In this document: positions 3,426 to 43,445 of the stretch, one piece after another | Layout of the letters: each line of letters opens with the position of its first letter | Numbering within the stretch: position 1 is the stretch's first letter | DNA from: an uncultured Chloroflexia bacterium | GTDB taxonomy: Bacteria; Chloroflexota; Limnocylindria; Limnocylindrales; CSP1-4 | Assembly: GCA_963704935.1 (NCBI GenBank) | Contig: CAVPIF010000003.1 | Coordinates: 1,128,004 to 1,192,003, forward strand | Length of the DNA: 64,000 bases | Reading direction: 5' to 3' | Position numbers and translations under genes: made by a program | The notes under the pieces: generated by a model | The model's database searches: none | What the model was told of the DNA's origin: nothing | The model's input: the letters and a program-made list of their open reading frames with translations, nothing else

Positions 3426-4259
3426 TCAAGCCTCGGGGTCGCCGACCCCCGCGAAGGCTCCGTCGATCTCCGCGAACGGGATCCCCCGGCTGAGCCCCGT
3501 GAACGTGCCCTGCTCGGCGATCTCCGTAGCGGCCTGCAGGAACGCGCCCCAGGCTACCCGGGCGAGTCCCCCACCCACGCTGATCCGCCGGACACCCAGG
3601 TCCGCCAGGGCCGCGACGGTCGTGAAGTCGCTGCCGACGAGGACGTTGACCGGCTTCGGAGCGACGGCCCGGACGACCGCCGCGATCTCCTCGAGGGTAC
3701 CGAGGCGCGGTGCGTACAGGCAGTCGGCGCCGGCCTCGGCATAGGCGCGCAGCCGGCGGATCGTGTCGGCGAGGTCGGGCCGACCGACCACGAACCCCTC
3801 CGATCGACCCGTGAGCAGCACCCGACCACCGTGCTCGTCGATCGCCGATCTCGCGGCGCGGATCCTGGCGACCGACAGGTCGAAGTCGAACAGCGGTTCC
3901 GTCGGATCGCCGCTCGAGTCCTCGATCGACAGCCCGGCGATGCCGGTCTCGACGGCGCGCGCGACGTTCGCCGCGACACCGTCGGGTTCCACCGCGAACC
4001 CACCCTCGAAATCGGCGTTGACCGGGATATCGACCGATCCGGCGACCGCCCGCAGGTGGGCGAGCGCCTCGTCGAGCGTCACTCCGTTGTCGGGCTTGCC
4101 CACCGTCCACGCGAAGCCGGAACTCGTGGTCGCCAGCGCGGTGAAGCCGAGACCCGCCAGCAAGCGCGCACTGCCGACGTCCCACGGGTTCGGGATGACG
4201 AAGCAGCCCGTTCGATGGAGGGCTTGGAATCTCTCGAAGCGGTCGGTGGTTCCTGGCAT
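3426..4259 (-). CDS. Isocitrate lyase / PEP mutase superfamily enzyme (2-methylisocitrate lyase-like)
   Basis: ATG at 4259 inside ORF 3426..4466. Family-typical motifs: FVIPNPWDVGSARLL, IPVNADFEGGF, GIAGLSIEDS, AGADCLYAP. Confidence 0.85.
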   Translation of the reverse strand: MPGTTDRFERFQALHRTGCFVIPNPWDVGSARLLAGLGFTALATTSSGFAWTVGKPDNGVTLDEALAHLRAVAGSVDIPVNADFEGGFAVEPDGVAANVARAVETGIAGLSIEDSSGDPTEPLFDFDLSVARIRAARSAIDEHGGRVLLTGRSEGFVVGRPDLADTIRRLRAYAEAGADCLYAPRLGTLEEIAAVVRAVAPKPVNVLVGSDFTTVAALADLGVRRISVGGGLARVAWGAFLQAATEIAEQGTFTGLSRGIPFAEIDGAFAGVGDPEA

Positions 4260-4281: not shown

Positions 4282-4529
4282 CGTCTGGGTTTCGAACGGG
4301 TCGGTCCAGTTGCGGCGCGATAACGGCTGACCGCCGCCACCCGACGCAACTGGAGGACGAGCTTCGTCGATCCGCCGCCCGCCGGCGCAAACGATGACGG
4401 GCGACGGCCCGCATCCAGTTCCTGCCGCTGATTCGACCGCTGAGCGGTGCATCCGAGGACGCGCACGGCTCTCGCTGCGTCCCGTTCTCCAGTTGCGTCG
4501 CCGAGCGGCGGCCAGGAGCCGGGGCCAGC
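4282..4529. repeat. Copy A of a ~245-bp structured repeat (18-bp long-range inverted repeat at 4332..4349 / 4473..4490)
   Basis: 226 nt differ from 9252..9477 at only ~6 positions, then weaker similarity for ~20 nt. Arms CGACGCAACTGGAGGACG and CGTTCTCCAGTTGCGTCG are complementary at 17 of 18 positions. Confidence 0.85.
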
Positions 4530-4781
4530 GTCCAGCCGCCCCCGTGTGACGGACTGCTGTATGTCTTACGCGATCGTGCGTGGATCCTGAGCTACGAGGT
4601 CATCGCTGCCGTGGTCGTCTTGGTCGTCGCCTCCGTCGCGATCATCGTCCTGGTCTTCGAGCGGGCGGTGACGCTGGACGCCACGATCGTCAGCGGCGGC
4701 GATCTCGGTCGGGGTCTTCCTGCCGCTCCTACCCGCCGCGTCTCTTGCCTGGATCGAGCCCGACGCGCCGGCAGACGTCTG

Positions 4782-5084
4782 ATGGCGCGTCCATCAGAAC
4801 GCATCGAGCCGGCGCTTCACAGCCGCTTGGCGGTGCTTCGCGCCGAGCGAGGCCTGTCGCGCCAGGATCTCGCCGACGCGGTGGTCGTGAACTATCAGAC
4901 GATCGGCTATCTCGAGCGGAACGAGTACAACCCGAGCCTCGATCTCGCGCTCCGAGCAGCCGAATACTTCGGCCTCCCGGTCGAGGCGATCTTCAGCCGT
5001 CGACCGTTCACGCCCATGTCCGAACAGCTGTACCCGGGGGCGGCGAAGCCACCAGCGGGGGGACGCGAGGAAAGTGCGATCTGA
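4782..5084 (+). CDS. Small XRE-family helix-turn-helix regulator
   Basis: LRAERGLSRQDLADAVVVNYQTIGYLERNEYNPSLDLALRAAEYFGLPVEAIF is a typical HTH_3 small regulator. The ATG at 4782 was chosen; the same frame is open from 4611 (hydrophobic N-extension), so the start is uncertain. Confidence 0.7.
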   Translation: MARPSERIEPALHSRLAVLRAERGLSRQDLADAVVVNYQTIGYLERNEYNPSLDLALRAAEYFGLPVEAIFSRRPFTPMSEQLYPGAAKPPAGGREESAI

Positions 5085-5297
5085 TCGGGATCATCCGCGC
5101 CACGCTCGAGTCTTCCATACTGACGATCCAACGCGTTGTCGTCCGGCGCAGCATGCAGCGATGGGATTCCGGATGGCGGCTATGAAGGTTGAGGTGGAAG
5201 ACGTGAGGGTACCGCGACACCCGACCCGGTCTTCGGGATCGGCCTTCCGGCACGTTGCGCGCGCGGGACTGTCTCTGACCTCGACTGAGCGGACGCC

Positions 5298-8144
5298 GTG
5301 AGGCGGCCCGAGCACGAGACACCTTTTGAGACGCTCCTCGAGAGCATCCCCGGGGCCGTGTACCGCCGCGCGCCGGAGCAGCCCTGGCACTTCGCGTATG
5401 TCACCGACGGCGTCGACTCGATCGCGGGACGTCGGGCGGATGATCTGATCCGGCCCGGTGGCCTGGCCGCCCTGCTGCCGGCGTCCGACGACCTGCCGAC
5501 ATTCTCCTCGGCGATCGGAGACGCGGTGTCCACCGGGCAGCCCTTCGAGCTGGAGTACCGAATCCTTCACGCGGACGGGACGACCCGCTGGATCCACGAT
5601 CGCGGACGGCCCGCGCGCGACGGGACCGACAGGGTGACCTGGATCGACGGCGTGCTCTTCGACATCACCGAGCGCAAAGAAGCCGAGCGGGTGCTGGTCG
5701 AGCAGCAGGCCAAGCTGGTTGCGCTCATGGACACCGTTCCCGACCACGTCTACTTCAAAGATCCCGAGAGCCGGTTCACGATGATCAGCACTGCGTTGGC
5801 GCGGTCGTTCGGTCTGGATGATCCAGCCCAGGCAGTCGGCAAGGCGGACACCGACTACTTCGGGGCTGAGCATGCGCTGCGGGCCCTCGAAGATGAGCGG
5901 GAGATCATCAGATCCGGCAAGCCCGTCATCGGCAAGGAGGAGAAGGAGACCTGGCCCGACGGCCACGTGACCTGGGCGTCGACGACCAAGTTGCCGCGGC
6001 TCGATCCGGAAGGGACTGTCCTCGGCACATTCGGCATATCCAGGGATATCACGGCCCGCAAGCTGGCCGATGCGGCGTTGGCAGACACCCACCAGCGTCT
6101 TGAGGTGGCCATCGCAGAAGCGATCGAGAAGACCCAGCAGGCAGAGTTGGCGAACTCCGCCAAGAGCGAATTCCTGGCCAACATGAGCCACGAGATCCGG
6201 ACGCCGATGAATGGCGTCATCGGCATGATCGGCCTGCTGCTCGACACGAAGCTCGACGACGACCAGCGCCGCTACGCCGAGGCCGTGCGGTCAAGTGGCG
6301 AATCGCTGCTGGAGATCCTCAACGACATCCTCGACTTCTCGAAGATCGAGGCGGGCAGCGTCGAGTTGGAGATGGTGGATTTCGACCTGCGGGCCCTGCT
6401 CGATGACTTCGCAGCCTTGCCCGCCGTGCGTGCCCAAGCCAAGGGTCTGGAATTCATCTGCGCTGTCGCGCCCGACGTGCCGGCCCATCTCTGCGGCGAC
6501 CCGGGTCGCTTGCGCCAGGTGCTTCTCAACCTGGCCGGCAATGCCTTGAAGTTCACCCAGCAGGGCGAGATCTCCGTGCGAGCCGGCCTGGCAGCGGAGA
6601 CCGACACCGACGCCGTGGTCCGCTTTTCGGTCAAGGACACGGGCATCGGCATCGCGGCAGACAAGCACGAGCACCTGTTCGAGAAGTTCACCCAGGCCGA
6701 CGCCTCGACGACGCGACGATATGGGGGCACGGGTCTTGGTCTCGCGATCTCCAAGCGGTTGGTCGAGCTCATGGGCGGCGAGATCGCACTGGTGAGCGAA
6801 GAAGGTCGTGGCTCGGAGTTCTCGTTCACGGTGCAACTCGGCAAGCAGGCCGAACCCGAGCGCATCGTCGTGTCCAACGACGAGATCCAAGGGACCCACA
6901 TCCTGGTGGTGGACGACAACGCCACGAACCGGGAGGTCCTGTCGACCCAGCTCAGAGCATGGGGCGGGCGGCCCGAGGAGGCCACCGACGGGCCGTCCTC
7001 GCTCCTGGCCCTGCGGCGCGCCTCGGATGCGGGCGACCCCTTCGTGGCGGCCATCCTCGACATGCAGATGCCCGACATGGACGGGGCGGACGTTGCCCGG
7101 GCGATCAAGGCAGACGAGAGCCTCAAGCACACTCGCCTCGTGCTCATGACCTCCGTCGGGCAGCGGGGTGACGCGCGGGAGATGGAGGAGATCGGGTTCT
7201 CAGCCTATCTGGTCAAGCCGGCTCGACAGTCGGACCTCTTTGACAGCCTGTCTGCCGTGTTGGCCCGGTCGACGGTCAGCCACGCCAAACAGCGGATCGT
7301 CACGCGCCACGTGGTCCGCGAGATGCGTCGCGGCGCGGTCCGCATCCTCCTTGCCGAGGACAACATCACGAACCAGCAGGTCGCCATCGGGCTCCTGAAG
7401 AAGCTGGGGCTCCGCGCGGACGCCGTGGGCGACGGGGTTGAGGCCATCAGGTCGCTGGAGACGCTCCCATACGACCTCGTGCTCATGGACGTCCAGATGC
7501 CCGAGATGGACGGCCTCGAGGCGACTCGCCGGATCCGCGATCCCGAGTCCGCCGTCCTCAACCACCAAGTCCCCATCGTCGCGATGACCGCCCACGCCAT
7601 GCAGGGCGACAGGGAACGGTGCCTGGAAGCCGGGATGGACGACTACGTCACCAAGCCGATCTCCCCCATCGCTCTGGCCGAGGCCCTCGATCGTTGGCTC
7701 CCGCGGGACTACGCGGGACTGCCGGCGCGCGCGCCGGATGAGCCCGTGGCGGGCTCCCACCAGACCTCGACCGAAGCCCCAGTGTTCGACCGGGCCGGTC
7801 TGCTAGCTCGTCTGATCGGCGACGAGGTCCTGGCGCGCACGGTGGTGGATGGCTTCCTGGAGGACACCCCACGGCAGATCGAGGCGCTCAGGGACTGCCT
7901 GCGCACGGGCGACGCCGCTGGCGCCATCCGCCAGGCGCACATCATCAAGGGGGCGTCGGCCACCGTCGGCGGTGAGGCGCTGAGCGCAGTGGCCGGAGAA
8001 ATGGAGAAGGCGGCCACTTCCGGCGACCTTGACACTGGCCGTGGCCATCTGCCGGACCTTGAGTCCCAGTTCGGCCGACTTCGTGCGGCGATGAGCGAGT
8101 TTGCCGGCCAGACAGGACCCGAGTCGGGTAGCCAAGGTGACTGA
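5298..8144 (+). CDS. Hybrid sensor histidine kinase (PAS-PAS-HisKA-HATPase-REC-REC-HPt)
   Basis: 948-aa ORF with an H-box ([12 protein letters not shown]), G-box ([14 protein letters not shown]), two receiver domains ([21 protein letters not shown]; [21 protein letters not shown]) and a C-terminal HPt ([12 protein letters not shown]). Confidence 0.95.
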
Positions 8145-8189
8145 GCAGTTCGTCGTCGACGACGAACTGCTGAGTCGGATCGCAGGTGT

Positions 8190-9119
8190 GTGCCGATGAG
8201 GATCCTGATCGCCGACGACGACTCCACCTCACGCCTCGTCCTCACGGGCGTCTTGAAGAAGTTCGGTCACGACGTGGTGGCGACGGTGAACGGCGCCGAG
8301 GCCTGGGAAGCGATGCAGCGACCCGATGCCCCGACGCTCGCCATACTCGACTGGATGATGCCCGGCCTCTCGGGCGTGGACGTCGTCCGTCACGTTCGAG
8401 GCCTGGGGTCCGACGAACCCCCGTACCTCATCCTCCTGACATCGATGAGTACGAAGGCCGACATCGTCGCCGGATTGGAGGCCGGTGCCGACGATTACCT
8501 GGTCAAGCCGTTCGACCCCGGAGAACTCCGCGCGAGGGTCGATGTCGGCCGCCGCGTGACCGACCTCCAGGTGAGGCTGCGCGATGCGCACCGCGCGCTC
8601 GAGATCGAGGCGACGCATGATCCCTTGACCGGCGCGCTCAATCGCCGAGCGTTCGCCGACGTCCTGTCCCGCACCCTTTCCGAGGAGCATCGGCATCGCC
8701 TGGGGGTCGCCCTGGGGATCTGCGACATCGACGAGTTCAAGAAGATCAACGACCTTCATGGCCACCGGGTCGGGGACGAGGTGCTGTGCGGGCTTGTCCA
8801 GCAGCTGACGAGCAGTCTGCGTGCGGAGGATGTCCTGAGCCGCCACGGCGGAGATGAGTTCGTGGTGCTCGCCGCCCACACGGGGGACACCGACGTCCGC
8901 CTGCTCTTCGACCGCGCCCGGGCAGCGGTCGCAGATAACCCTATCCACACGCAGGCGGGAGACCTCTCGGTCACGATCAGCTTCGGCGTGAGCGCGCTGA
9001 GAGAGGGCGGTACCGCGGATGACCTGCTCGGGGCCGCCGACGCCGCGCTGTATCGGGCCAAGGACGCCGGCCGGAACCGGGTGGTCGTAGCCGAGGGATC
9101 GGCATCGACGTCAAGCTGA
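8190..9119 (+). CDS. Response regulator with GGDEF output domain (diguanylate cyclase)
   Basis: REC domain (ILIADDDSTSRLVL..DWMMPGLSG..KP) followed by GGDEF (RHGGDEFVVLA, AADAALYRAKDAGRNR). It sits 45 nt downstream of the kinase. Confidence 0.95.
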   Translation: MPMRILIADDDSTSRLVLTGVLKKFGHDVVATVNGAEAWEAMQRPDAPTLAILDWMMPGLSGVDVVRHVRGLGSDEPPYLILLTSMSTKADIVAGLEAGADDYLVKPFDPGELRARVDVGRRVTDLQVRLRDAHRALEIEATHDPLTGALNRRAFADVLSRTLSEEHRHRLGVALGICDIDEFKKINDLHGHRVGDEVLCGLVQQLTSSLRAEDVLSRHGGDEFVVLAAHTGDTDVRLLFDRARAAVADNPIHTQAGDLSVTISFGVSALREGGTADDLLGAADAALYRAKDAGRNRVVVAEGSASTSS

Positions 9120-9251
9120 CCGACGACCGGTCCTCCGTCCGTCAGACGGCAGGACTGTGCTCGACTCCGAAGCGTCGGGTCACCTCCTTGAAGCCCGTGA
9201 GCACGCGCGCGACATGCTCGCCGAGCTTCGACAGGGTGCGACCGACAGACC

Positions 9252-9497
9252 TCGAACGGGTCCGTCCGGTCGCGGCGCGACAGCGGCTGACCGCCGCCAC
9301 CCGACGCAACTGGAGGACGAGCTTCGACGATCCGCCGCCCGCCGGCGCAAACGATGACGGGCGACGGCCCGCATCCAGTTCCTGCCGCTGATTCGACCGC
9401 TGAGCGGTGCATCCGAGGACGCGCACGGCTCTCGCTGCGTCCCGTTCTCCAGTTGCGTCGCCGAGCGGCGGCCAGGAGGGGGCCATCGTCCGGCCGC
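9252..9497. repeat. Copy B of the ~245-bp structured repeat (inverted-repeat arms 9302..9319 / 9443..9460)
   Basis: Direct-orientation copy of 4282..4529 at an offset of 4970 nt. Starts 133 nt after the GGDEF gene stop. Confidence 0.85.
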
Positions 9498-9920
9498 ATG
9501 CCTGGGTGAGTCGTCACGTGTCCGACCTGCGGGCGCGGGATGACGAAGGTCGAGTCGACCAAGGGTACTGACGCCGAACGGGCCGAACCGCGTCCGCTCG
9601 CGCTCGCGCTCGCGCGTCCCGGTGTGGTCCCATCGCCATGGAGGATCCGAGTGCCCGCTGTGAAGACGATTCGGAGCGCCGCTGCTACACGAACGCGATC
9701 ACGGCCTTGGTCGTGGGGTCTCGGTTCCGGGGCCAGCGGCGGGAGTGCGGCCAGCGGTGGTCGCCTGCCGTAACGAACGGTGACGTCGCGCGTCGACGGA
9801 GCGGAGACGCCGAGCATGACGGGTGGCGGCGATGGCCCATCGCTTCAGTGGTCGTGCATGCCCCCTTGACGGGACCCAGCGTGAGCACCGATTCCAACGG
9901 GATCGAGAGGTCGCGCAGGC

Positions 9921-15764: not shown

Positions 15765-15925
15765 GGCGGCGTCCAGTTCGTGGAGCGGTGCTCCCATGAT
15801 ACCACGGTATCTCGGTGCGCCTGCCGTCGCGATCCACTCATCCCCTGGCTACACGGAGCTCGTTCGCCCTTCTGTGCTCCAGCCTACCCATGGTCAGGCC
15901 GCACGGACAGGAGTAGGCTGCGCCC

Positions 15926-17101
15926 GTGGTTGACCAGGGAGGGACGACCCAGCGGCTTGCGGCAGTGCTGGGCGGCGCGCTCCTCGTGTTCACGGTCAGC
16001 GGATGCGCCGGCGGGTCGCCATCGCCCTCCGCACTCGCCTCTCCGTCTGGGGAGCCCACGACGCCTTCACCATCTGCTTCAGCCTCCTCGGAGCCCAGCG
16101 ATCCCGCCGCAGGTACCTGGATCCCGGCGCCAGGCATGGTGGCCGCGCGCACCTATCACACGGCTACCCTCCTGAACGACGGCACCGTGCTGGTGGCCGG
16201 CGGGGAGGGCAGCGCCTCCCCCCCGCCCGCCTCCGCGGAGATCTATGACCCGATCGCCGGGACATGGACGGCCATCGCCGATATGCACCGCGGCAGGCGT
16301 GGCCACACTGCCACGCTGCTTCTGGACGGCAGGGCCCTCGTGGTAGCGGGCGACTGCGATGAGGTCAACCACGTCGGCTCGGCCGAGCTGTACGACCCCG
16401 AGACGCGGACCTGGACCATGACCGCGAGCCCGACCGGGGAGGCCTGCGGCGATCAGACAGCCACCCTGCTGCTCGACGGCACGGTCCTGCTGGCAGGCGG
16501 CGAGGGCATTGGCATCGATTCCTCGTTTGCCTTGGCCGAGCTGTATGACCCGGACACCGAAACCTGGACCGTTACCGGGAACATGATCGAGGACCATCAC
16601 GGGCATACGGCCACCCTGCTGCTCGACGGCACGGTGCTGGTGGTGGGCGGTGGCCGCAGCGACGGTTCACCAGTCGGGGCCGAGCTATACGACCCGCGCA
16701 CCAGGACCTGGACTGCTGCGGGAGCCGTTCTCGGAGGGCACCACAATCATGCGGCCACGCTGCTGCCCGATGGCAGGGTGCTGGTGTCGGGAACCGGCGG
16801 AGGCGGGGCGCAGGTGTCGGCCGAGCTATACGACCCTGACAGCGGGTCCTGGACAGCGGCCGCACCCATGCTCGAGGACCGCTCCGGTCACACCGCCGCA
16901 CTGCTACTGGATGGTCGCGTGCTCGTAGCTGGCGGCCAAAGACCCGCTGAGCTGTATGACCTCGAAACAGGGGCCTGGGCTGCCGCCGCTCCGGCTGGGG
17001 GCAGCGCCGCCGAGACCGCAACGCTGCTAAATGACGGTCGAGTGCTGGTCGTTGGCGGCGGAAGCGCCAGCCTGTTCGTCCCCGGAGATCAGCCAACGTA
17101 G
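15926..17101 (+). CDS. Kelch-repeat (beta-propeller) lipoprotein, copy 1
   Basis: Signal peptide plus lipobox (LLVFTVSGCAG), a Pro/Ser linker, then ~7 repeats of AELYDPxTxTWTxxxxMxxxRxxHTATLLxDGxVLVxGG. Paralogue at 42124..43299. Confidence 0.85.
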   Translation: MVDQGGTTQRLAAVLGGALLVFTVSGCAGGSPSPSALASPSGEPTTPSPSASASSEPSDPAAGTWIPAPGMVAARTYHTATLLNDGTVLVAGGEGSASPPPASAEIYDPIAGTWTAIADMHRGRRGHTATLLLDGRALVVAGDCDEVNHVGSAELYDPETRTWTMTASPTGEACGDQTATLLLDGTVLLAGGEGIGIDSSFALAELYDPDTETWTVTGNMIEDHHGHTATLLLDGTVLVVGGGRSDGSPVGAELYDPRTRTWTAAGAVLGGHHNHAATLLPDGRVLVSGTGGGGAQVSAELYDPDSGSWTAAAPMLEDRSGHTAALLLDGRVLVAGGQRPAELYDLETGAWAAAAPAGGSAAETATLLNDGRVLVVGGGSASLFVPGDQPT

Positions 17102-17476
17102 GCCCGGCCCGATGCCCAACCGACGGCGACCGCACGATCTGATGTCGCGGCCAGGCCAGCGCCGGTACGACTCTGCATCGGGCATCGAGGGCAGTCCGGC
17201 CACCCGTTGCAGGCTACGCCGTCGTCGCTTCGCCACAACTCCAGCTCGCCCACCCGATCGACGTCCTGGTTCCGGGCGCCCAGTGCGAGGACTTGCCTGC
17301 CCGAGACGCTCACCCTGCAGGGCCGCGCCCGCTCAAGCGTCGAGATCCAGCTCGAGCCGTTGGTCGATGTCGCGACGATGTCGACGGCTGAGGCGTTGCC
17401 GCATTCCGGCTGGCAGATCGTGCCGATGGCGCCGACTGACGCCCCGCGACCTCGCCCGCGGCGGCTCGTCTCGAGG

Positions 17477-24668: not shown

Positions 24669-24929
24669 GGAGCGGAGAGCAGCGGCGCGACGGGAGGCCG
24701 TGCGTGGTGGGCTCCTTGACTCCCACCGGGCCGGCCACGGGTACCTACGCGGCGCCCTCGCCGCAGGCGGCACGCGCGCAGCTCGCCTCGAGCTGCCCTG
24801 CCGAGATCGACCACCTATCCACCCCCCGGGGCCCGTGCGGGTTCGGACCCGTGGCCCGCAGGCGTAGCACCGCAGGCGTAGCACCGCAGGCGAATAGACC
24901 GCGCCAACCACGCCCTCAACGATTTGCGG

Positions 24930-25373
24930 GTGAAGCTCTGCACGGTCTGCGGCGTCGTCACCAGCCGCCCTCGTAGCCGCTGTACCGAGCACGCCCGGCA
25001 GTCCAACCGCAGCCGACATAACGCGCTGTACTGCACGCGGGCCTGGCAGCGTCTCAGCGCCCGCGTGCTGCTGGCGTGGCGTGGTGAGCACGGCAATTGG
25101 TGCCCGGGCTATCAGCGTCCAGCCCACCGCGCTGCCGACCTCACCGTCGATCACGTCGTGCCGCTGGCCGCGGGCGGCGCGCCGTTCGACATCGGCAACA
25201 CCGCGGTGCTATGCCGCTCCTGCAACTCGACGAAGGGTGCGTCAGTCGACGCGGACCTGGGTGGGGTAGCCCACATGGCGACGCGGCTCAACGCTGACCG
25301 CGCCGCGCGACTGTGTGCACGCGGCCGGGTTTCGCGTTTTGTGGGGGGTTTTCGCCAGTGGGGTACTGCATGA
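24930..25373 (+). CDS. HNH endonuclease (phage-type), copy 1
   Basis: KLCTVCG..RCTEH..DLTVDHVVPLAAGGAPFDIGNTAVLCRSCNSTKG gives CxxC..H..DH..N..CxxCN. The GTG at 24930 aligns with the start of copy 2 at 36225. Confidence 0.85.
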   Translation: MKLCTVCGVVTSRPRSRCTEHARQSNRSRHNALYCTRAWQRLSARVLLAWRGEHGNWCPGYQRPAHRAADLTVDHVVPLAAGGAPFDIGNTAVLCRSCNSTKGASVDADLGGVAHMATRLNADRAARLCARGRVSRFVGGFRQWGTA

Positions 25374-25777
25374 GCGCTGACGCCGCCGAGGCATTGGCCG
25401 CCTCCGCGACGATGGCCCTCCGCGCGATCCTCGCACCGCTGCGCCATTGCCCGGCCTGCGGCGCCGAGCTCCCATATCTCGGCGGGCGGGGCAGACCGCG
25501 CCGGTGGTGCGACGCCCACCATCCGCGTCCCTGCGCGGCTTCGCCCGCGGGCGTCCCAGGGCTCCGGCGTGCCCGCGGCCACGCTCGCGAGGGCGTGCGC
25601 GCGGAGATCCCGCCCCGCGATCTCGCTGACTGTCCGCCCGTGGGCGCCCACGTCGGCCGACGTGGCGCAATGAACTCGAGGGTGGCATGGACGCGACCCG
25701 ACCCAGATAGTGGCCCGGGGCTGCCCTATGGCATGGGCCGCGCACTCCGTGCCGGGCCGACGATCCCCTCCTCGTAG
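25370..25777 (+). CDS. Possible small zinc-ribbon protein, copy 1 (doubtful)
   Basis: The ATG overlaps the HNH stop (ATGA). It contains HCPACGAELPYLGGRGRPRRWC. The downstream reading frame differs from copy 2 because of a 1-nt indel, and it overlaps the Fic 3' end. Confidence 0.3.
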   Translation: MSADAAEALAASATMALRAILAPLRHCPACGAELPYLGGRGRPRRWCDAHHPRPCAASPAGVPGLRRARGHAREGVRAEIPPRDLADCPPVGAHVGRRGAMNSRVAWTRPDPDSGPGLPYGMGRALRAGPTIPSS

Positions 25778-26937
25778 GCCCTGAGAAGGTCGAACAGCTC
25801 GGTCGCTGCGTACTGGCGGTCGTACGTGCCCTCGCTCAGCTGGCGGATGACCCCAGCCTCGGCCAGCGCCTTGAGCGCGGCGAGCGTCTGCTGCTGGCTG
25901 ACGCCGATCGCCGCGCGGGCGGTCGGCGCGGACAGCGCCGGCAGCGCGGGGAGCAGCGCGATGAGCTTGCTCGCCGCTGATCCAGCCCTTGGGCGGCCGG
26001 CGCGCTCACGCCACTCGCTCTGGAGCGCCGCCACCTGGTCCGCGAGCTCGATCGACGCGGCCGCCGCTCGCCCGGCTGCCTCGGAGAAGGAGCCGATCCA
26101 CGCGGCAACGCGCCCTTCGCGGAACGCCGTGAGCCCCTCGACGTAGGCGGTGGGCCGGGCCGCCAGGACGATGCTGACCGGCGGGACAAACCGGGCGGCG
26201 ACACCGCGGCGCCGCAGCACCACGTGGATGAGGGCCCGGCCGACGCGGCCGTTGCCGTCGATGAAGGGGTGGATGGTTTCGAACTGCGCGTGGGCGATGG
26301 CCGCCTGCGCCACCGCGGGCAGGTCGTCCCGGGCGACGAAGGCAGCGAGGTCCTCAAGCAGCGGCATGACGATGTCCTCGGGCGGCGGCACGAAGACCGC
26401 ATCGGACGGGTTCCCGAGCCGGCCACCGATCCAGTTCTGCTCCTCGCGCACTCGGCCGGGTCGCGCCCGCTCGTCGCCCGCCATGAGCACCGCGTGGATC
26501 GCCAGCAGGTCGGCGACGGTCACCGGCTCCGTGCGGTCCCCGATCGTGATCGCCTCCTCCATCGCGGACACGTTCGCCGCGACGATCCTGGCGCTGCCCC
26601 GTGCCGCCCGAGGGTCGATCAGCGCCCGGGCGAGGTTGAGCGAGGAGACGTCGTAGCCCTCGATCCGGGACGACGCCACGGCCTCCGATCGCAGGAGCAG
26701 CGGGCCGATCGCTTCGAGGCCGCCCACCGAGGCGCGCTCGTTGAGCGCCCGGATCGCCGCCTCCGCATCCGCCGACAGGTCGGCGACTTCGAACGGGACG
26801 ACGGGGCTGAGCGCGGCGATCTCGTCAGGGACGAATGCCTGGTACCGGAACGAGGCACGCGCCCGGCGTCCACCCACCGCGCCAGGGTCTCCTTCCCAAG
26901 TCCGCTCGACGGTCCTCGGCACACGGCCTCCTGTCAC
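25726..26937 (-). CDS. Fic-family protein (Fic_N, Fic core, C-terminal winged helix), copy 1
   Basis: 403-aa ORF with the canonical Fic motif HPFIDGNGRVGRAL and upstream SSRIEGY. The predicted protein is identical to copy 2 at 37017..38228. Confidence 0.95.
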   Translation of the reverse strand: MTGGRVPRTVERTWEGDPGAVGGRRARASFRYQAFVPDEIAALSPVVPFEVADLSADAEAAIRALNERASVGGLEAIGPLLLRSEAVASSRIEGYDVSSLNLARALIDPRAARGSARIVAANVSAMEEAITIGDRTEPVTVADLLAIHAVLMAGDERARPGRVREEQNWIGGRLGNPSDAVFVPPPEDIVMPLLEDLAAFVARDDLPAVAQAAIAHAQFETIHPFIDGNGRVGRALIHVVLRRRGVAARFVPPVSIVLAARPTAYVEGLTAFREGRVAAWIGSFSEAAGRAAAASIELADQVAALQSEWRERAGRPRAGSAASKLIALLPALPALSAPTARAAIGVSQQQTLAALKALAEAGVIRQLSEGTYDRQYAATELFDLLRAYEEGIVGPARSARPMP

Positions 26938-27076
26938 AACCCTTCAGTCTCTTTGCATAAATGAAGGAATAAGACGAGGCTGCACCCATAACCCTTCAAT
27001 GTCAACTGGAAATCCAAGGGAAGCGAGGGGCGCCAATGTCGCGACGCAGGTGTCGCCGATCTCGCAACTCAAGAAT

Positions 27077-27092
27077 TGGTCGGGGCGAGAGG
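27077..27092 (+). repeat. att-like exact copy of the 3'-terminal 16 nt of tRNA-Pro(CGG)
   Basis: TGGTCGGGGCGAGAGG, followed by GATAGCCCCGCCACCAACGACCTTCCGATCACGATGCGCC with patchy similarity to the adjoining tRNA sequence (CGACCT, CGATGCGC). The LuxR ATG is 81 nt downstream. Confidence 0.75.
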
Positions 27093-27172
27093 GATAGCCC
27101 CGCCACCAACGACCTTCCGATCACGATGCGCCTCTCCGAGCCGCCCGAGCCGTACGACTGGCTGCGGAGCGC

Positions 27173-27418
27173 ATGACACGCCGGTTGTCGCGCCCCGCCG
27201 GACGTGCCACCGACCGTGAGGTCGGCGTGGTCGCCGCGGTCCTGGCGGCCGGGTCGGAGAAGGCGGCCGCCCACCGCCTGGGGCTGTCGCACTCGACCGT
27301 GAAGCACCATCTGGCGAACGCGCGGTCCAAGGTGGGAGCGACGACGACCGCGCAACTGGTGTGGATCCTCGCATCGCGGCTGCTGGATGCGGAGGGAGGT
27401 AGTCAGGCCGACGAATAG
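27173..27418 (+). CDS. Small LuxR/GerE-type HTH protein (copy L2)
   Basis: MTRRLSRPAGRATDREVGVVAAVLAAGSEKAAAHRLGLSHSTVKHHLANARSKVGATTTAQLVWILASRLLDAEGG. Confidence 0.85.
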   Translation: MTRRLSRPAGRATDREVGVVAAVLAAGSEKAAAHRLGLSHSTVKHHLANARSKVGATTTAQLVWILASRLLDAEGGSQADE

Positions 27419-36158: not shown

Positions 36159-36224
36159 CTGGTCCCGCAGGCGTAGCACCGCAAGCGAATAGACCGCGCC
36201 CGCCTTCCAGCCGACGATTCGCGG

Positions 36225-36668
36225 GTGAAGCTGTGCACGGTCTGCGGTGTCGCCACCAGCCGCACTGGTAGCCGCTGCGCCGAGCACGCACGGCAGTCCA
36301 ACCGCAGCAGGCACAACGCCCTGTACAGCACGCGGGCATGGCAGCGTCTCAGCGCCCGCGTGCTGCTGGCGTGGCGTGGTGAGCACGGCAATTGGTGCCC
36401 GGGCTATCAGCGTCCAGCCCACCGCGCTGCCGACCTCACCGTCGACCACGTCGTGTCGCTCGCCGCTGGCGGTGCGCCGTTCGACATCGCCAACACCGCG
36501 GTGCTATGCCGCTCCTGCAACTCGACGAAGGGTGCGTCAGTCGACGCGGACCGGGGTGGGGTAACCCATATGGGGCCACGGCTGAACGCTGACCGCGCCG
36601 CGCGACCGTGTGCACGCGGCCGGGTTTCGCCCGTTATGGGGGGTTTTCGCCAGTGGGGTGGTGCATGA
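36225..36668 (+). CDS. HNH endonuclease (phage-type), copy 2
   Basis: Paralogue of 24930..25373 with the same CxxC/DH/N/CxxCN layout. By eye ~90 percent nucleotide identity. Confidence 0.85.
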   Translation: MKLCTVCGVATSRTGSRCAEHARQSNRSRHNALYSTRAWQRLSARVLLAWRGEHGNWCPGYQRPAHRAADLTVDHVVSLAAGGAPFDIANTAVLCRSCNSTKGASVDADRGGVTHMGPRLNADRAARPCARGRVSPVMGGFRQWGGA

Positions 36669-36964
36669 GCGCTGACGCCGAGGCTGTCGCTGCGTCGGCG
36701 ACGATCGCCCTCCGCGCGAGCCTCGCGCCGCCGCGCCACTGCCCGGCCTGCGGCGCCAAGCTCCCGTATCTCGGTGGGCGGGGCAGGCCGCGCCGGTGGT
36801 GCGACGCCCATCATCCGCGTCCCTCGCGGCTTCGACCGCGGGCGTCCCAGGGCTCCGGCGTGCCCGCGGCCACGCTCGCGAGGGCGTGCGCGCGGAGATC
36901 CCGCCCCGCGATCTCGCTGACTGTCCGCCCGTGGGCGCCCACGTCGGCCGACGTGGCGCAATGA
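36665..36964 (+). CDS. Possible small zinc-ribbon protein, copy 2 (doubtful)
   Basis: MSADAEAVAASATIALRASLAPPRHCPACGAKLPYLGGRGRPRRWC... The C-terminal frame differs from copy 1. Confidence 0.3.
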   Translation: MSADAEAVAASATIALRASLAPPRHCPACGAKLPYLGGRGRPRRWCDAHHPRPSRLRPRASQGSGVPAATLARACARRSRPAISLTVRPWAPTSADVAQ

Positions 36965-37016
36965 ACTCGAGGGTGGCATGGACGCGACCCGACCCAGATA
37001 GTGGCCCGGGGCTGCC

Positions 37017-38228
37017 CTATGGCATGGGCCGCGCACTCCGTGCCGGGCCGACGATCCCCTCCTCGTAGGCCCTGAGAAGGTCGAACAGCTCGGTCGCTGC
37101 GTACTGGCGGTCGTACGTGCCCTCGCTCAGCTGGCGGATGACCCCAGCCTCGGCCAGCGCCTTGAGCGCGGCGAGCGTCTGCTGCTGGCTGACGCCGATC
37201 GCCGCGCGGGCGGTCGGCGCGGACAGCGCCGGCAGCGCGGGGAGCAGCGCGATGAGCTTGCTCGCCGCTGATCCAGCCCTTGGGCGGCCGGCGCGCTCAC
37301 GCCACTCGCTCTGGAGCGCCGCCACCTGGTCCGCGAGCTCGATCGACGCGGCCGCCGCTCGCCCGGCTGCCTCGGAGAAGGAGCCGATCCACGCGGCAAC
37401 GCGCCCTTCGCGGAACGCCGTGAGCCCCTCGACGTAGGCGGTGGGCCGGGCCGCCAGGACGATGCTGACCGGCGGGACAAACCGGGCGGCGACACCGCGG
37501 CGCCGCAGCACCACGTGGATGAGGGCCCGGCCGACGCGGCCGTTGCCGTCGATGAAGGGGTGGATGGTTTCGAACTGCGCGTGGGCGATGGCCGCCTGCG
37601 CCACCGCGGGCAGGTCGTCCCGGGCGACGAAGGCAGCGAGGTCCTCAAGCAGCGGCATGACGATGTCCTCGGGCGGCGGCACGAAGACCGCATCGGACGG
37701 GTTCCCGAGCCGGCCACCGATCCAGTTCTGCTCCTCGCGCACTCGGCCGGGTCGCGCCCGCTCGTCGCCCGCCATGAGCACCGCGTGGATCGCCAGCAGG
37801 TCGGCGACGGTCACCGGCTCCGTGCGGTCCCCGATCGTGATCGCCTCCTCCATCGCGGACACGTTCGCCGCGACGATCCTGGCGCTGCCCCGTGCCGCCC
37901 GAGGGTCGATCAGCGCCCGGGCGAGGTTGAGCGAGGAGACGTCGTAGCCCTCGATCCGGGACGACGCCACGGCCTCCGATCGCAGGAGCAGCGGGCCGAT
38001 CGCTTCGAGGCCGCCCACCGAGGCGCGCTCGTTGAGCGCCCGGATCGCCGCCTCCGCATCCGCCGACAGGTCGGCGACTTCGAACGGGACGACGGGGCTG
38101 AGCGCGGCGATCTCGTCAGGGACGAATGCCTGGTACCGGAACGAGGCACGCGCCCGGCGTCCACCCACCGCGCCAGGGTCTCCTTCCCAAGTCCGCTCGA
38201 CGGTCCTCGGCACACGGCCTCCTGTCAC
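37017..38228 (-). CDS. Fic-family protein, copy 2 (identical to copy 1)
   Basis: The 403-aa translation is identical to 25726..26937, at an offset of 11291 nt. Confidence 0.95.
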   Translation of the reverse strand: MTGGRVPRTVERTWEGDPGAVGGRRARASFRYQAFVPDEIAALSPVVPFEVADLSADAEAAIRALNERASVGGLEAIGPLLLRSEAVASSRIEGYDVSSLNLARALIDPRAARGSARIVAANVSAMEEAITIGDRTEPVTVADLLAIHAVLMAGDERARPGRVREEQNWIGGRLGNPSDAVFVPPPEDIVMPLLEDLAAFVARDDLPAVAQAAIAHAQFETIHPFIDGNGRVGRALIHVVLRRRGVAARFVPPVSIVLAARPTAYVEGLTAFREGRVAAWIGSFSEAAGRAAAASIELADQVAALQSEWRERAGRPRAGSAASKLIALLPALPALSAPTARAAIGVSQQQTLAALKALAEAGVIRQLSEGTYDRQYAATELFDLLRAYEEGIVGPARSARPMP

Positions 38229-38367
38229 AACCCTTCAGTCTCTTTGCATAAATGAAGGAATAAGACGAGGCTGCACCCATAACCCTTCAATGTCAACTGG
38301 AAATCCAAGGGAAGCGAGGGGCGCCAATGTCGCGACGCAGGTGTCGCCGATCTCGCAACTCAAGAAT

Positions 38368-38383
38368 TGGTCGGGGCGAGAGG
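38368..38383 (+). repeat. att-like exact copy of the 3'-terminal 16 nt of tRNA-Pro(CGG)
   Basis: TGGTCGGGGCGAGAGG in the same context as 27077. Confidence 0.75.
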
Positions 38384-38463
38384 GATAGCCCCGCCACCAA
38401 CGACCTTCCCATCACGATGCGGCTCGCTGAGCCGTCAGAGCCGCTCGAGCTGGTCCGCAGCGC

Positions 38464-38712
38464 ATGACGCGACGGTCATCCCGCCACGCCGCCGAACTTG
38501 CCACCGACCGTGAGGTCGGGGTGGTCGCCGCCGTCATCGCGGCTGGCTCCGAGAAGGCGGCTGCTCACCGCCTGGGCCTGTCGCACTCGACCGTGAAGCA
38601 CCATCTGGCGAATGCGCGGTGCAAGGTGGGGGCGGAGACGACGGCGCAGTTGGTATGGATCCTCGGTCCGCGGCTGCCGCAGCCGGACGGCGCGGCACAA
38701 GCGGACGACTGA
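38464..38712 (+). CDS. Small LuxR/GerE-type HTH protein (copy L3)
   Basis: MTRRSSRHAAELATDREVGVVAAVIAAGSEKAAAHRLGLSHSTVKHHLANARCKVGAETTAQLVWILGPRLPQPDG. Confidence 0.85.
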   Translation: MTRRSSRHAAELATDREVGVVAAVIAAGSEKAAAHRLGLSHSTVKHHLANARCKVGAETTAQLVWILGPRLPQPDGAAQADD

Positions 38713-41936: not shown

Positions 41937-42123
41937 CCTCGGAGCGCCCCGTCTGGTTCGCGCTTGCGACCGCGGTCCGCGCCGTGGTGATCGGCCTGAC
42001 CCTGAGCCTCGGCGGCTTGCTCCTCGGTATCCCTGTGGCGATGCCTCCGGTGGAGGACGGCGAGCGGCCGGCGGCCCCGGCCGACCCATAGTCAGGCCGC
42101 ACGGACAGGAGTAGGCTGCGTCC

Positions 42124-43299
42124 GTGGTTGACCAGGGAGGGACGACCCAGCGGCTCGCGGCAGTGCTGGGCGGCGCGCTCCTGGTGTTCACGGTCAGCGG
42201 ATGCGCCGGCGGGTCGCCATCGCCCTCCGCATTCGCCTCCCCGTCTGGGGAGCCTACGACGCCTTCACCATCTGCTTCAGCCTCCTCGGAGCCCAGCGTT
42301 CCCGCCGCAGGGACCTGGATCCCGACGCCAGGCATGGTGGCCGAGCGCTCCGATCACACGGCTACCCTCCTGAACGATGGCACCGTGCTGGTGGCCGGCG
42401 GGGAGGGCAACGCCTCCCCCCCGCCCGCATCCGCGGAGATCTATGACCCGATCGCCGGGACATGGACGGCCATCGCCGATATGCACCGCGGCAGGCGCGG
42501 CCACACTGCCACGCTGCTGCTGGACGGCAGGGTCCTCGTGGTAGCAGGCGACTGCGACGAGGTCAACCACGTCGGCTCGGCCGAGCTGTACGACCCCGAG
42601 ACGCGGACCTGGACCATGACCGCGAGCCCGACCGGGGAGGCCTGCGGCAATCAGACAGCCACCCTGCTGAGCGACGGAACGGTCCTGCTGGCGGGCGGCG
42701 AGGGCATTGCCATCGATTCCTCGTTTGCCTGGGCCGAGCTGTATGACCCGGACACCGAAACCTGGACCGTAACCGGGAACATGATCGAGGACCATCACGG
42801 GCATACGGCCACGCTGCTGCTCGACGGCACGGTGCTGGTGGTGGGCGGTGGCCGCAGCGACGGTTCCCCGGTCGGGGCCGAGCTGTACGACCCGCGCACC
42901 AGGACCTGGACCGCTGCGGGAGCCGTTCTTGGAGGGCACCACAATCATGCGGCCACGCTGCTGCCCGATGGCAGGGTGCTGGTGTCGGGAACCGGCGGAG
43001 GCGGGGCGCAGGTGTCGGCCGAGCTATACGACCCTGACAGCCGGTCCTGGACAGCGGCCGCACCCATGCTCGAGGACCGCTCCGGTCACACCGCCGCACT
43101 GCTACTGGATGGTCGCGTGCTCGTAGCTGGCGGCCAAGGATCCGCTGAGCTGTATGACCCCGAAACAGGGTCCTGGGCTGCCGCCGCTCCGGCTGGGGGA
43201 AGCGCCGCCGAGACCGCAACGCTTCTGGATGATGGTCGAGTGCTGGTCGTTGGCGGCGTAAGCGCCAGCCTGTTCGACCCCGGCGATCAGCCAACGTAG
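42124..43299 (+). CDS. Kelch-repeat lipoprotein, copy 2
   Basis: 391 aa, the same length as copy 1, with ~20 amino-acid differences. The duplicated segment is 42091..~43313, matching 15893..~17115 at an offset of 26198. Confidence 0.85.
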   Translation: MVDQGGTTQRLAAVLGGALLVFTVSGCAGGSPSPSAFASPSGEPTTPSPSASASSEPSVPAAGTWIPTPGMVAERSDHTATLLNDGTVLVAGGEGNASPPPASAEIYDPIAGTWTAIADMHRGRRGHTATLLLDGRVLVVAGDCDEVNHVGSAELYDPETRTWTMTASPTGEACGNQTATLLSDGTVLLAGGEGIAIDSSFAWAELYDPDTETWTVTGNMIEDHHGHTATLLLDGTVLVVGGGRSDGSPVGAELYDPRTRTWTAAGAVLGGHHNHAATLLPDGRVLVSGTGGGGAQVSAELYDPDSRSWTAAAPMLEDRSGHTAALLLDGRVLVAGGQGSAELYDPETGSWAAAAPAGGSAAETATLLDDGRVLVVGGVSASLFDPGDQPT

Positions 43300-43445
43300 G
43301 CCTGGCCCGATCGAGTGAGGCCCGAGCCGCCCTCGGACGTCCTGGGGGTGACCGACTGCACGTTCACGCTGACCGCTCATGCGAATGCGCGAGGCTGGGA
43401 CGCGGCCTTCGGGGGCGGCGTCGTCCGCGTGAAAGAAGGTGAGTC

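Follow-up and report, generated by a model that had tools for sequence, protein, structure and literature searches.

Repetitive extragenic palindromic (REP) units are palindromes of 20 to 40 bp that bear a GTAG tag, occur in tens to hundreds of copies and form inverted doublets, while the longer Correia elements carry a TA target duplication and an IHF site and are present in hundreds of similar copies. A further class, the CGTC-tagged REPs, was described by Di Nocera, De Gregorio & Rocco 2013 (PMC3733652). These units have a terminal CGTC, an 8- to 9-bp stem with A-T first pairs, a loop of 4 to 5 nt and a CCA tail; they mostly form head-to-head dimers 20 to 100 bp apart, some are nested in longer palindromes, no dedicated transposase is assigned to them, and they are found in five phyla. 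Here we analyse a repeat from a 64,000-nt stretch of an uncultured Chloroflexia genome (the window; coordinates without a prefix are window positions), in which two direct copies, A and B, bracket a 4.7-kb signalling module. The repeat belongs to a dispersed family, named E here, in the window's own genome (G000, with contigs C1 to C3; 3.08 Mb in 3 contigs, 71% G+C, 88.6% complete). With a probability of roughly two in three, E is a lineage-restricted, nested-palindrome intergenic repeat of the kind represented by REP dimers, bacterial interspersed mosaic elements (BIMEs), ERIC and Correia sequences, and miniature inverted-repeat transposable elements (MITEs). It occurs in a few species of the genus and is small repeat DNA, not a dedicated regulator of signalling genes; nothing indicates that it specifically regulates the module.

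The original prediction of two direct copies of an approximately 245-bp repeat is borne out. A repeat search of the window gives an ungapped direct repeat of 227 nt (4292-4518 and 9252-9478) with 97% identity, and a gapped alignment lengthens the homology to a 248-bp unit, 4292-4539 in copy A and 9252-9497 in copy B, at an offset of 4960. The start first given for copy A, 4282, has to be moved 10 nt to the right to bring the two copies into register. In the gapped alignment, A and B differ at 8 substituted positions and by one 2-nt indel. Five substitutions lie in the 35-nt left flank (4303, 4308, 4311, 4321, and 4323) and a single one in the core (4367, T in A and A in B, where the counterpart is 9327); the right flank has the indel (4519-4520), followed by substitutions at 4528 and 4534. 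The earlier count of about 6 differences clustered at one end was nearly right for the first 227 nt, in which 5 of 6 are at the left end and the other is at 4367. The parts of the two copies are:

4292..4539, + strand: copy A, whole duplicated unit (core plus flanks common to B only; alignment, flanks unique in the genome)
4327..4517, + strand: copy A core, the 191-nt E, model positions 1-191 (covariance model R1, 157.4 bits on the + strand and 75.4 bits on the - strand; nhmmer)
4327..4359, + strand: copy A 5' terminal inverted arm (inverted-repeat search; conserved block in the family alignment)
4483..4515, + strand: copy A 3' terminal inverted arm (inverted-repeat search; family alignment)
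4374..4386, + strand: copy A inner hairpin 1, GCCG-N5-CGGC (family alignment)
4434..4449, + strand: copy A inner hairpin 2, CGACCGC-TGA-GCGGTG, inverted relative to its partner, hairpin 1
4304..4314, + strand: copy A left flank, 3' arm core repeated, GTCCAGTTGCG (end motifs are repeated in a similar way at other copies)
4530..4539, + strand: copy A right-flank partial reiteration, GTCCAGCCGC
9252..9497, + strand: copy B, whole duplicated unit (alignment)
9287..9477, + strand: copy B core, the 191-nt E (R1, 156.3 bits)
9287..9319, + strand: copy B 5' arm (inverted-repeat search)
9443..9475, + strand: copy B 3' arm (inverted-repeat search)

In both copies the arms are 33 nt long and 82% complementary, with 123 nt between them, and the 18-nt long-range inverted repeat seen earlier (17 of 18 positions complementary, 123 nt apart) is a genuine part of these longer arms. 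A CGTC tag at 4365-4368 precedes hairpin 1 of copy A, and the sole core difference falls inside it. The third arm-like segment reported for copy A exists, but at 4305-4314 rather than 4297..4306; this motif, TCCAGTTGCG, is found again within the 3' arm at 4488-4497. Also present are the direct repeats at the ends of the copies, GTCCAG at 4304 and 4530 in A and GTCCGG at 9264 and 9488 in B, which had been likened to a target-site duplication. They lie 12 to 23 nt outside the arms and, with the GC that follows (GTCCRG..GC), repeat part of the 3' arm core; they are not a target duplication. No convincing GAGA-tetraloop hairpin was found in the repeat, and the stretch proposed to form it is not conserved in the family.

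A BLAST search of the genome returned the two copies and weak fragments only. Using copy A alone as a query, nhmmer gave approximately 9 weak further matches, all over query positions 46-238, precisely the stretch that the inverted arms of copy A delimit. Two rounds of profile iteration then converged on 15 full copies and one end fragment, so that A and B are far from being the only copies; a family of just two would have counted against the original prediction. The covariance model built from the 15 copies (R1) recovers the identical 15, and because it matches every one of them on both strands, E is a quasi-palindrome. The copies are on two contigs and measure 180 to 200 nt: 11 of the 15 have 190 or 191 nt, two have 180, one has 200, and one has 190 with compensating indels. 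Their conserved ends form a terminal inverted repeat of 28 to 33 nt with the consensus CCACCGCCACGCGACGCAACTGACGAAG ... CTTCGTCAGTTGCGTCGCnnAGCGGYGG. In the family alignment, each E also contains two inner CCGC-N4-5-GCGG hairpins at mirror-image positions and in inverted orientation, often flanked by CGTC or GACG (exact CGTC before hairpin 1 in 7 of 15 copies), and the invariant positions are the CCG/CGG cores. Solitary hairpins of the inner type are rare elsewhere in the genome.

Beyond the arms and hairpins, the copies have diverged widely. The cores of A and B are 99.5% identical; every other pair shares 50% to 71% (mean 56.6%). By region, identity is 74.6% at the ends and 44.6% in the interior, where composition alone would give approximately 30%, and the interiors are almost saturated. 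E is short, non-coding, dispersed, and multi-copy, and the arms are conserved in all copies. No reading frame is conserved. A minus-strand frame is open through both A and B, in frame with the adjacent phosphoenolpyruvate (PEP) mutase gene in A, with a product rich in R, A, and G, and was considered and rejected as a protein-coding repeat; the plus-strand RRNW frame stops in other copies, and its peptide, RRNWR..FVDPPP, common to one other copy and with a stop in the rest, was likewise rejected.

Comparison with congeners provides empty sites. The genes mreB-mreC-rmlA and the next gene are contiguous in 13 congeners, and the mreC-rmlA spacer, approximately 16 to 110 bp in these 13, is 1.63 kb in G000 and holds two E copies. 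In G015, the mreC stop is followed by 16 nt and then by the conserved rmlA leader CCCTGCTACGCTTCC. The arrangement in G000 is:

G000 mreC-rmlA spacer: approximately 190 nt of G+C-rich repetitive DNA; E (C3:1214228-1214417); a 246-aa HTH_3 gene; E (C3:1213148-1213337); approximately 170 nt

The insert region spans G000:C3:1212935-1214608, and its 246-aa HTH_3 protein (XRE246) has an uncharacterised C-terminal domain. Three paralogues, 29% to 42% identical, are encoded elsewhere on C1; none of the three is near an E, and XRE246-type genes were rejected as mobilising genes. At the same site in G021 (L086 2464-3358), a 58%-identical XRE246 homolog lies with one E, inverted relative to the G000 arrangement. 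A second polymorphic spacer, pth-ybeY, is 34 bp in G028, 65 bp in G035, and 580 bp in G000. Insertion polymorphism is thereby seen at both mreC-rmlA and pth-ybeY, in species that are distant and with exact empty-site junctions unreadable. No E was found at orthologous loci of five relatives.

BLAST of the repeat in 60 relatives gave noise only, and the family became visible by profile searches. Among 33 congeners, strong matches to the covariance model are found only in G021 (at least 4 copies, forming a 170-nt subfamily) and G034 (1 copy); three of the G021 copies are at loci unrelated to those of G000, and the fourth is the one at mreC-rmlA. The closest relative by MreC identity, G015 (88%), has no E, and the next, G028 (85%), has weak hairpin matches only. 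The model finds no E in 8 genomes of the same order, nor in 24 that represent 16 other genera of the class, and a plasmid collection contains no match. A signature pattern searched against all GTDB representatives and against JGI metagenomes gave one match each, both at chance level by the model; the pattern is specific to the G000 subfamily and misses the G021/G034 type, so that these searches do not prove absence of the wider family. From this distribution and the non-orthologous positions, it follows that the family is patchy and that its positions are not inherited across species; the spacers it occupies are hot spots of variation.

In relatives without E there is another repeat, in which 2 to 3 hairpins of the form TTCGGTCACC-CGG-TGACCGAAC, spaced approximately 60 to 80 nt, are followed by CGACGAA. 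The weak model matches in G024, G035, and G028 are built on this other hairpin (GGTCACC-CGG-TGACC), and it may represent a diverged sister family of E. It is found at:

L092 1501-1671: other-hairpin repeat in G024
L093 1501-1671: other-hairpin repeat in G035
L091 1500-1612: other-hairpin repeat in G028

In G000, all 15 copies of E are intergenic. The genes on either side diverge at 2 copies, converge at 4, and run in tandem at 9; of the last group, 5 are co-oriented with the genes and 4 are opposite. The neighbours are mostly unrelated housekeeping genes (such as rpsO, htpX, aroF, trpE, pth, ybeY, argC, alr, rpiB, pgi, and mreC). Short tandem arrays with units of 15 to 22 nt abut several copies and reiterate the terminal motifs CCGCCGCC / GCGTCGCGTG; the copy at pth-ybeY has an 18-nt array on its left and a 16-nt array on its right, both reiterating its own arm motifs. 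E can be described as a clean, small nested palindrome in which arms, hairpins, and length persist as the interior saturates and the ends spawn minisatellites. The arrays are:

G000:C1:906241-906440: tandem array beside E
G000:C1:905860-906049: tandem array beside E
G000:C3:983495-983640: tandem array beside E
G000:C3:953093-953140: tandem array beside E
G000:C1:552940-553019: tandem array beside E

By eye, the copies at C1:164437 and C1:536472 adjoin tRNA-like clusters (C1:163500-164400 and C1:536150-536450, respectively). An rve-type (IS481/IS3-like) transposase region at G000:C1:167054-169218, 2.4 kb from the first of these copies, contains a 100%-identical 844-bp tandem duplication.

The CGTC-tagged REPs are the best published description for a repeat of this kind, and the comparison indicates resemblance and not membership (PMC3733652). 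Shared are the small GC-rich stem-loops with loops of 4 to 5 nt, the inverted dimers spaced by 20 to 100 bp, the outside CGTC/GACG tags, the intergenic location, the lack of a transposase, and a family size and presence that vary sharply between related species. E differs in that CGTC is exact in only 7 of 15 copies, conserved stems are mostly 4 to 7 bp instead of 8 to 9 bp, A-T first pairs and the CCA tail are lacking, the outer arms are best conserved, and there are just 15 units. That E has neither a RAYT nor another visible mobilising enzyme poses a problem that Di Nocera et al. also raise for the CGTC REPs (PMC3733652). In the REPIN-RAYT system (Bertels & Rainey 2011, PMC3116915), two inverted REP-like hairpins likewise lie in one larger hairpin, and the elements persist for long in lineages with a patchy distribution. 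The inner hairpins of E are inverted doublets with CGTC-like tags instead of GTAG, and E is present in far lower copy number. The Pfam family of RAYT/Y1 HUH transposases, PF01797, has no match in G000, in a search for which control genomes were positive.

At the level of the whole element, the Correia/NEMIS elements of Neisseria and the ERIC/IRU sequences of enterobacteria are alike in being non-coding imperfect palindromes of 100 to 200 bp with terminal inverted repeats of approximately 26 to 30 bp, dispersed between genes in both orientations, forming long hairpins when transcribed and showing insertion polymorphism between relatives. Compared with Correia, E lacks a target duplication, has 15 copies, combines a saturated interior with strict length, and contains two inner REP-like hairpins. 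BIMEs and the pneumococcal BOX elements share with E modular palindromic units, end modules tandemly reiterated in intergenic spacers, and lineage specificity, but the fixed 190-nt core with nested symmetry differs from the variable boxA-(boxB)n-boxC of BOX. E as a whole behaves like ERIC/Correia-type MITEs and REPINs, and departs from MITEs in target duplication and partner insertion sequence (IS) and from REPINs in RAYT. Of the identities suggested originally, the MITE-like element comes closest: the dispersed 15-copy family, the terminal inverted repeats, and the empty orthologous sites agree with it, but there is no target duplication, and an autonomous partner was not found. E would have spread by insertion in a few species, either via a trans-acting or since lost transposase or via hairpin-driven template switching, and most copies would now be old. 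Selection may keep the arms, hairpins, and length, acting either on the hairpin, as DNA or as RNA, or on a motif to which a protein binds.

Outside the core, only A and B have sequence in common, so that a 248-bp unit extending beyond E itself has been duplicated. The private flanks, 35 nt on the left and approximately 22 nt on the right, are approximately 86% identical and are found at no other place in the genome, whether joined or separate. One difference falls in the 191-nt core versus 7 in the 57-nt flank (Fisher p = 1.6e-4). The pair is best read as the youngest of the 15-copy family, local duplicates homogenised by gene conversion. The 248-bp unit would have been duplicated locally in the course of a rearrangement of this eroded accessory region around the 4.7-kb XRE / hybrid-kinase / GGDEF module, and the core would later have been homogenised by gene conversion. 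Independent insertion into a repeated target is not supported, the genome containing no intact joined A-flank target. Lying 4.96 kb apart in direct orientation and 97% identical over 227 bp, A and B form an adequate substrate for RecA, and it is fair to suppose from the sequence that they could mediate RecA-dependent deletion or tandem amplification of the cyclic di-GMP (c-di-GMP) module, which they may mark as poised for loss or amplification by homologous recombination. This capacity is a by-product and not a purpose of the repeats. As a separate observation, duplicate tuf genes are a classic gene-conversion pair, and G000 has 100%-identical 1.2-kb copies of tuf (EF-Tu) at G000:C1:489067-490278 and 505618-506829, 16.5 kb apart.

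Several observations weigh against E as a MITE- or REP-like repeat that has spread by insertion, and against the history proposed for A and B. There is no direct repeat of common length in the flanks of the 15 copies that could be a target-site duplication, and no autonomous partner was found: the genome contains no solo arm pairs 1 to 3 kb apart, and the one end fragment is beside a full copy. IS-like repeats sharing the arms of E were not found in G000, which is 88.6% complete and in which the ends of the rve-type region at C1:167054 were not compared. Fifteen copies is a low number for a REP-type family, and apart from A and B no pair exceeds 71% identity, which offers no hint that E has transposed recently. 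Since decayed copies would escape detection, ascertainment makes the arms look more conserved than they are, and the sole evidence of mobility is presence or absence among species 12% to 30% diverged in MreC. For the A/B pair, the distribution of differences is the only sign of gene conversion, and consensus polishing could equally homogenise a repeat core in an assembly whose contig-end strain overlaps are at approximately 95% identity. Finally, not even G015 and G028, the closest relatives, show synteny with the window's first 20 kb, which precludes an empty-site comparison at the A/B locus.

Alternatively, E could be a recombination site that bounds gene cassettes in the manner of attC or pdif, where a circular cargo plus E joins a resident E to give E-cargo-E; the XRE/kinase/GGDEF module and XRE246 would then be two such cassettes. 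Two close pairs do bracket cargo (A/B around the 4.7-kb module and C3:1213148 + C3:1214228 around XRE246), when approximately 0.3 pairs within 5 kb would be expected for 15 random points in 3.08 Mb (our own estimate). The XRE246 insert is missing from mreC-rmlA in 13 congeners, and in G021 the homolog and its single E occupy that site inverted. Like integron attC sites, E is an imperfect palindrome with a variable interior and conserved ends, and its arm ACGCAAC / GTTGCGT agrees at 6 of 7 positions with the attC R''/R' consensus, RYYYAAC / GTTRRRY. However, most copies (13 by count) are solitary between housekeeping genes, the mreC-rmlA insert runs approximately 170 to 190 nt past both E copies so that its borders are not at E ends, and the XRE246 paralogues have no E nearby. 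GTTGCGT is replaced by GATAGCA in the G021/G034 subfamily, the core motif not being kept across subfamilies, and at 190 nt E exceeds the length of attC (57-141 bp). The genome has only two tyrosine recombinases (C3:122.8k and C3:165.4k), both far from any E; no integron integrase was found in it, and E does not form an array. Membership in attC fails on every point compared (length, motif across subfamilies, recombinases, and dispersal), and cassette boundaries of this type are unlikely. A form of cassette exchange new to this lineage, with E copies as modules of recombination or protein recognition and often XRE-led cargo plus E entering intergenic hot spots, is quite improbable; if true, it would explain the E-cargo-E pairs, the opposite orientation of XRE246 and E in G021, and strict length and ends around a saturated interior. 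Rather improbable, too, is that E offers a cluster of binding sites to a DNA-binding protein of the host, either nucleoid-associated or an XRE-type dimeric regulator. The four CCGC-N3-5-GCGG palindromes and the tandem CCGCCGCC end motifs would act like operators, and conservation would then reflect protein recognition: the CCG/CGG cores are invariant, the end motifs recur in tandem, neither length nor spacing varies, and the arms are conserved as sequence (see the pairing statistics below). XRE-family genes adjoin 3 of 15 copies as well as the G021 copy at mreC-rmlA, but this adjacency is not significant (2 of 29 neighbour genes versus approximately 0.4 expected, our own estimate). No candidate protein was found, the neighbours are functionally unrelated housekeeping genes, and absence of E from the closest relatives rules it out as an essential chromosomal site.

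E might instead act as a structured non-coding RNA or cis-regulatory RNA, such as an mRNA-stabilising or RNase III-processed hairpin or a terminator without a U-tract, in which case copy A would act on PEP-mutase or XRE transcripts. E folds as a long GC-rich hairpin in either orientation, 13 of 15 copies are downstream of at least one gene 3' end, and REP, ERIC, and Correia elements are known to act at the RNA level (PMC3733652). However, the fold z-scores against dinucleotide shuffles are only -1.4 (+ strand) and -2.0 (- strand), unexceptional for 70% G+C, and the description "highly structured" was an overstatement. Rfam has no match in the window at the gathering threshold, the best hit on copy A at a permissive threshold having E = 0.42. 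In the family alignment, 80.5% of the helix cells are paired compared to 79.6% in column shuffles, and the covariation score was reached or exceeded by 61 of 500 shuffles and is not significant; the helices are conserved as sequence and not via compensatory change. No promoter-like or terminator-like consensus is present in or beside A or B, orientation is unbiased, and the distribution over spacer types approximates that of random intergenic placement. That the copies are intergenic, in any orientation, and next to unrelated housekeeping genes argues against a leader, as originally offered, or a riboswitch; the both-strand model matches agree with this, and an RNA function in the wider sense is decidedly unlikely. 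The description as a repeat family removes a dedicated leader/riboswitch or transposon-border reading from the annotation of the flanks of the c-di-GMP module. A hammerhead-like CUGACGA motif was also considered, but it sits in a perfect helix and Rfam has no match, and it was rejected. Least probable of all, and very unlikely, is that the assembly or polishing of a mixed-strain metagenome bin created the close match between the A and B cores, or the A-module-B order, as an artefact. Multi-mapping reads can homogenise repeat cores in polishing, and contig ends overlap at 95% to 96% identity (C1 versus C3 and C2 versus C3). Yet each copy has unique flanking DNA of its own, with both on a single contig out of three, the private flanks at approximately 86% identity show two truly different loci, and as E is genuinely multi-copy, two copies at a distance of 5 kb can be explained without an artefact. 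The overlaps, 95% to 96% identical over 7 to 17 kb, are C1:6401-23493 versus C3:16102-33251 and C2:2445-11016 versus C3:1284524-1293067; a third is C3:1379673-1386527 versus C1:1673796-1680659. Two strains, or haplotypes left uncollapsed, are probably present in the bin, and claims based on near-identical repeats have to be judged with this in mind.

For the lineage-restricted intergenic repeat favoured here, the coordinates of the 15 copies, the consensus, and the covariance model can be used to mask or annotate repeats in a poorly known lineage. As to the genes around A and B, Pfam agrees with the earlier assignments of the bracketed XRE, hybrid-kinase, and REC-GGDEF genes and of the isocitrate-lyase-family gene on the left:

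3426..4259, - strand: PEP_mutase / isocitrate-lyase-family gene (Pfam PF13714, 8e-74; ATG at 4259, 32 nt from copy A)
4782..5084, + strand: XRE-type HTH gene, first of the bracketed module (Pfam HTH_3, 1.5e-10)
5298..8144, + strand: hybrid histidine kinase, PAS-PAS-HisKA-HATPase_c-REC-REC-Hpt (Pfam)
8190..9119, + strand: REC-GGDEF response regulator / diguanylate cyclase (Pfam)
9142..9251, - strand: coding-like 36-codon tail (…LSKLGEHVARVLTGFKEVTRRFGVEHSPAV*) abutting copy B, with no credible start outside the repeat

Copy A occupies the divergent spacer between the PEP-mutase-family and XRE genes, and the start of the latter is uncertain (the frame is open from 4580; MARPSE begins at 4782). 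Copy B lies between the REC-GGDEF 3' end and a gene-free stretch of 430 nt, beyond which is a convergent MDMPI_N-family gene; this stretch contains a hexanucleotide tandem, CGCTCG, of approximately 4 units (9588-9612). In the 36-codon tail, 28 of 35 sense codons end with G or C (hand count). It has no homolog in G000 or in 40 congeners and may be what is left of a gene that was cut short when rearrangement produced copy B. The PEP-mutase gene is found in 14 of 40 congeners, its neighbours never being shared, and a search of the recorded contigs for any that encode this PEP mutase or the GGDEF protein of the module returned nothing. Module G+C is 2 to 7 points below the genome mean. The lack of synteny, the low G+C of the module, and the coding-like stump beside B are consistent with an eroded, rearranged accessory region. 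Elsewhere in the window, two further direct repeats have copies that are approximately 96% identical, one of 2.5 kb (24870-27383 versus 36165-38677; C3:1152873/1164168) and one of 1.2 kb (15876-17113 versus 42074-43311; C3:1143879/1170077).

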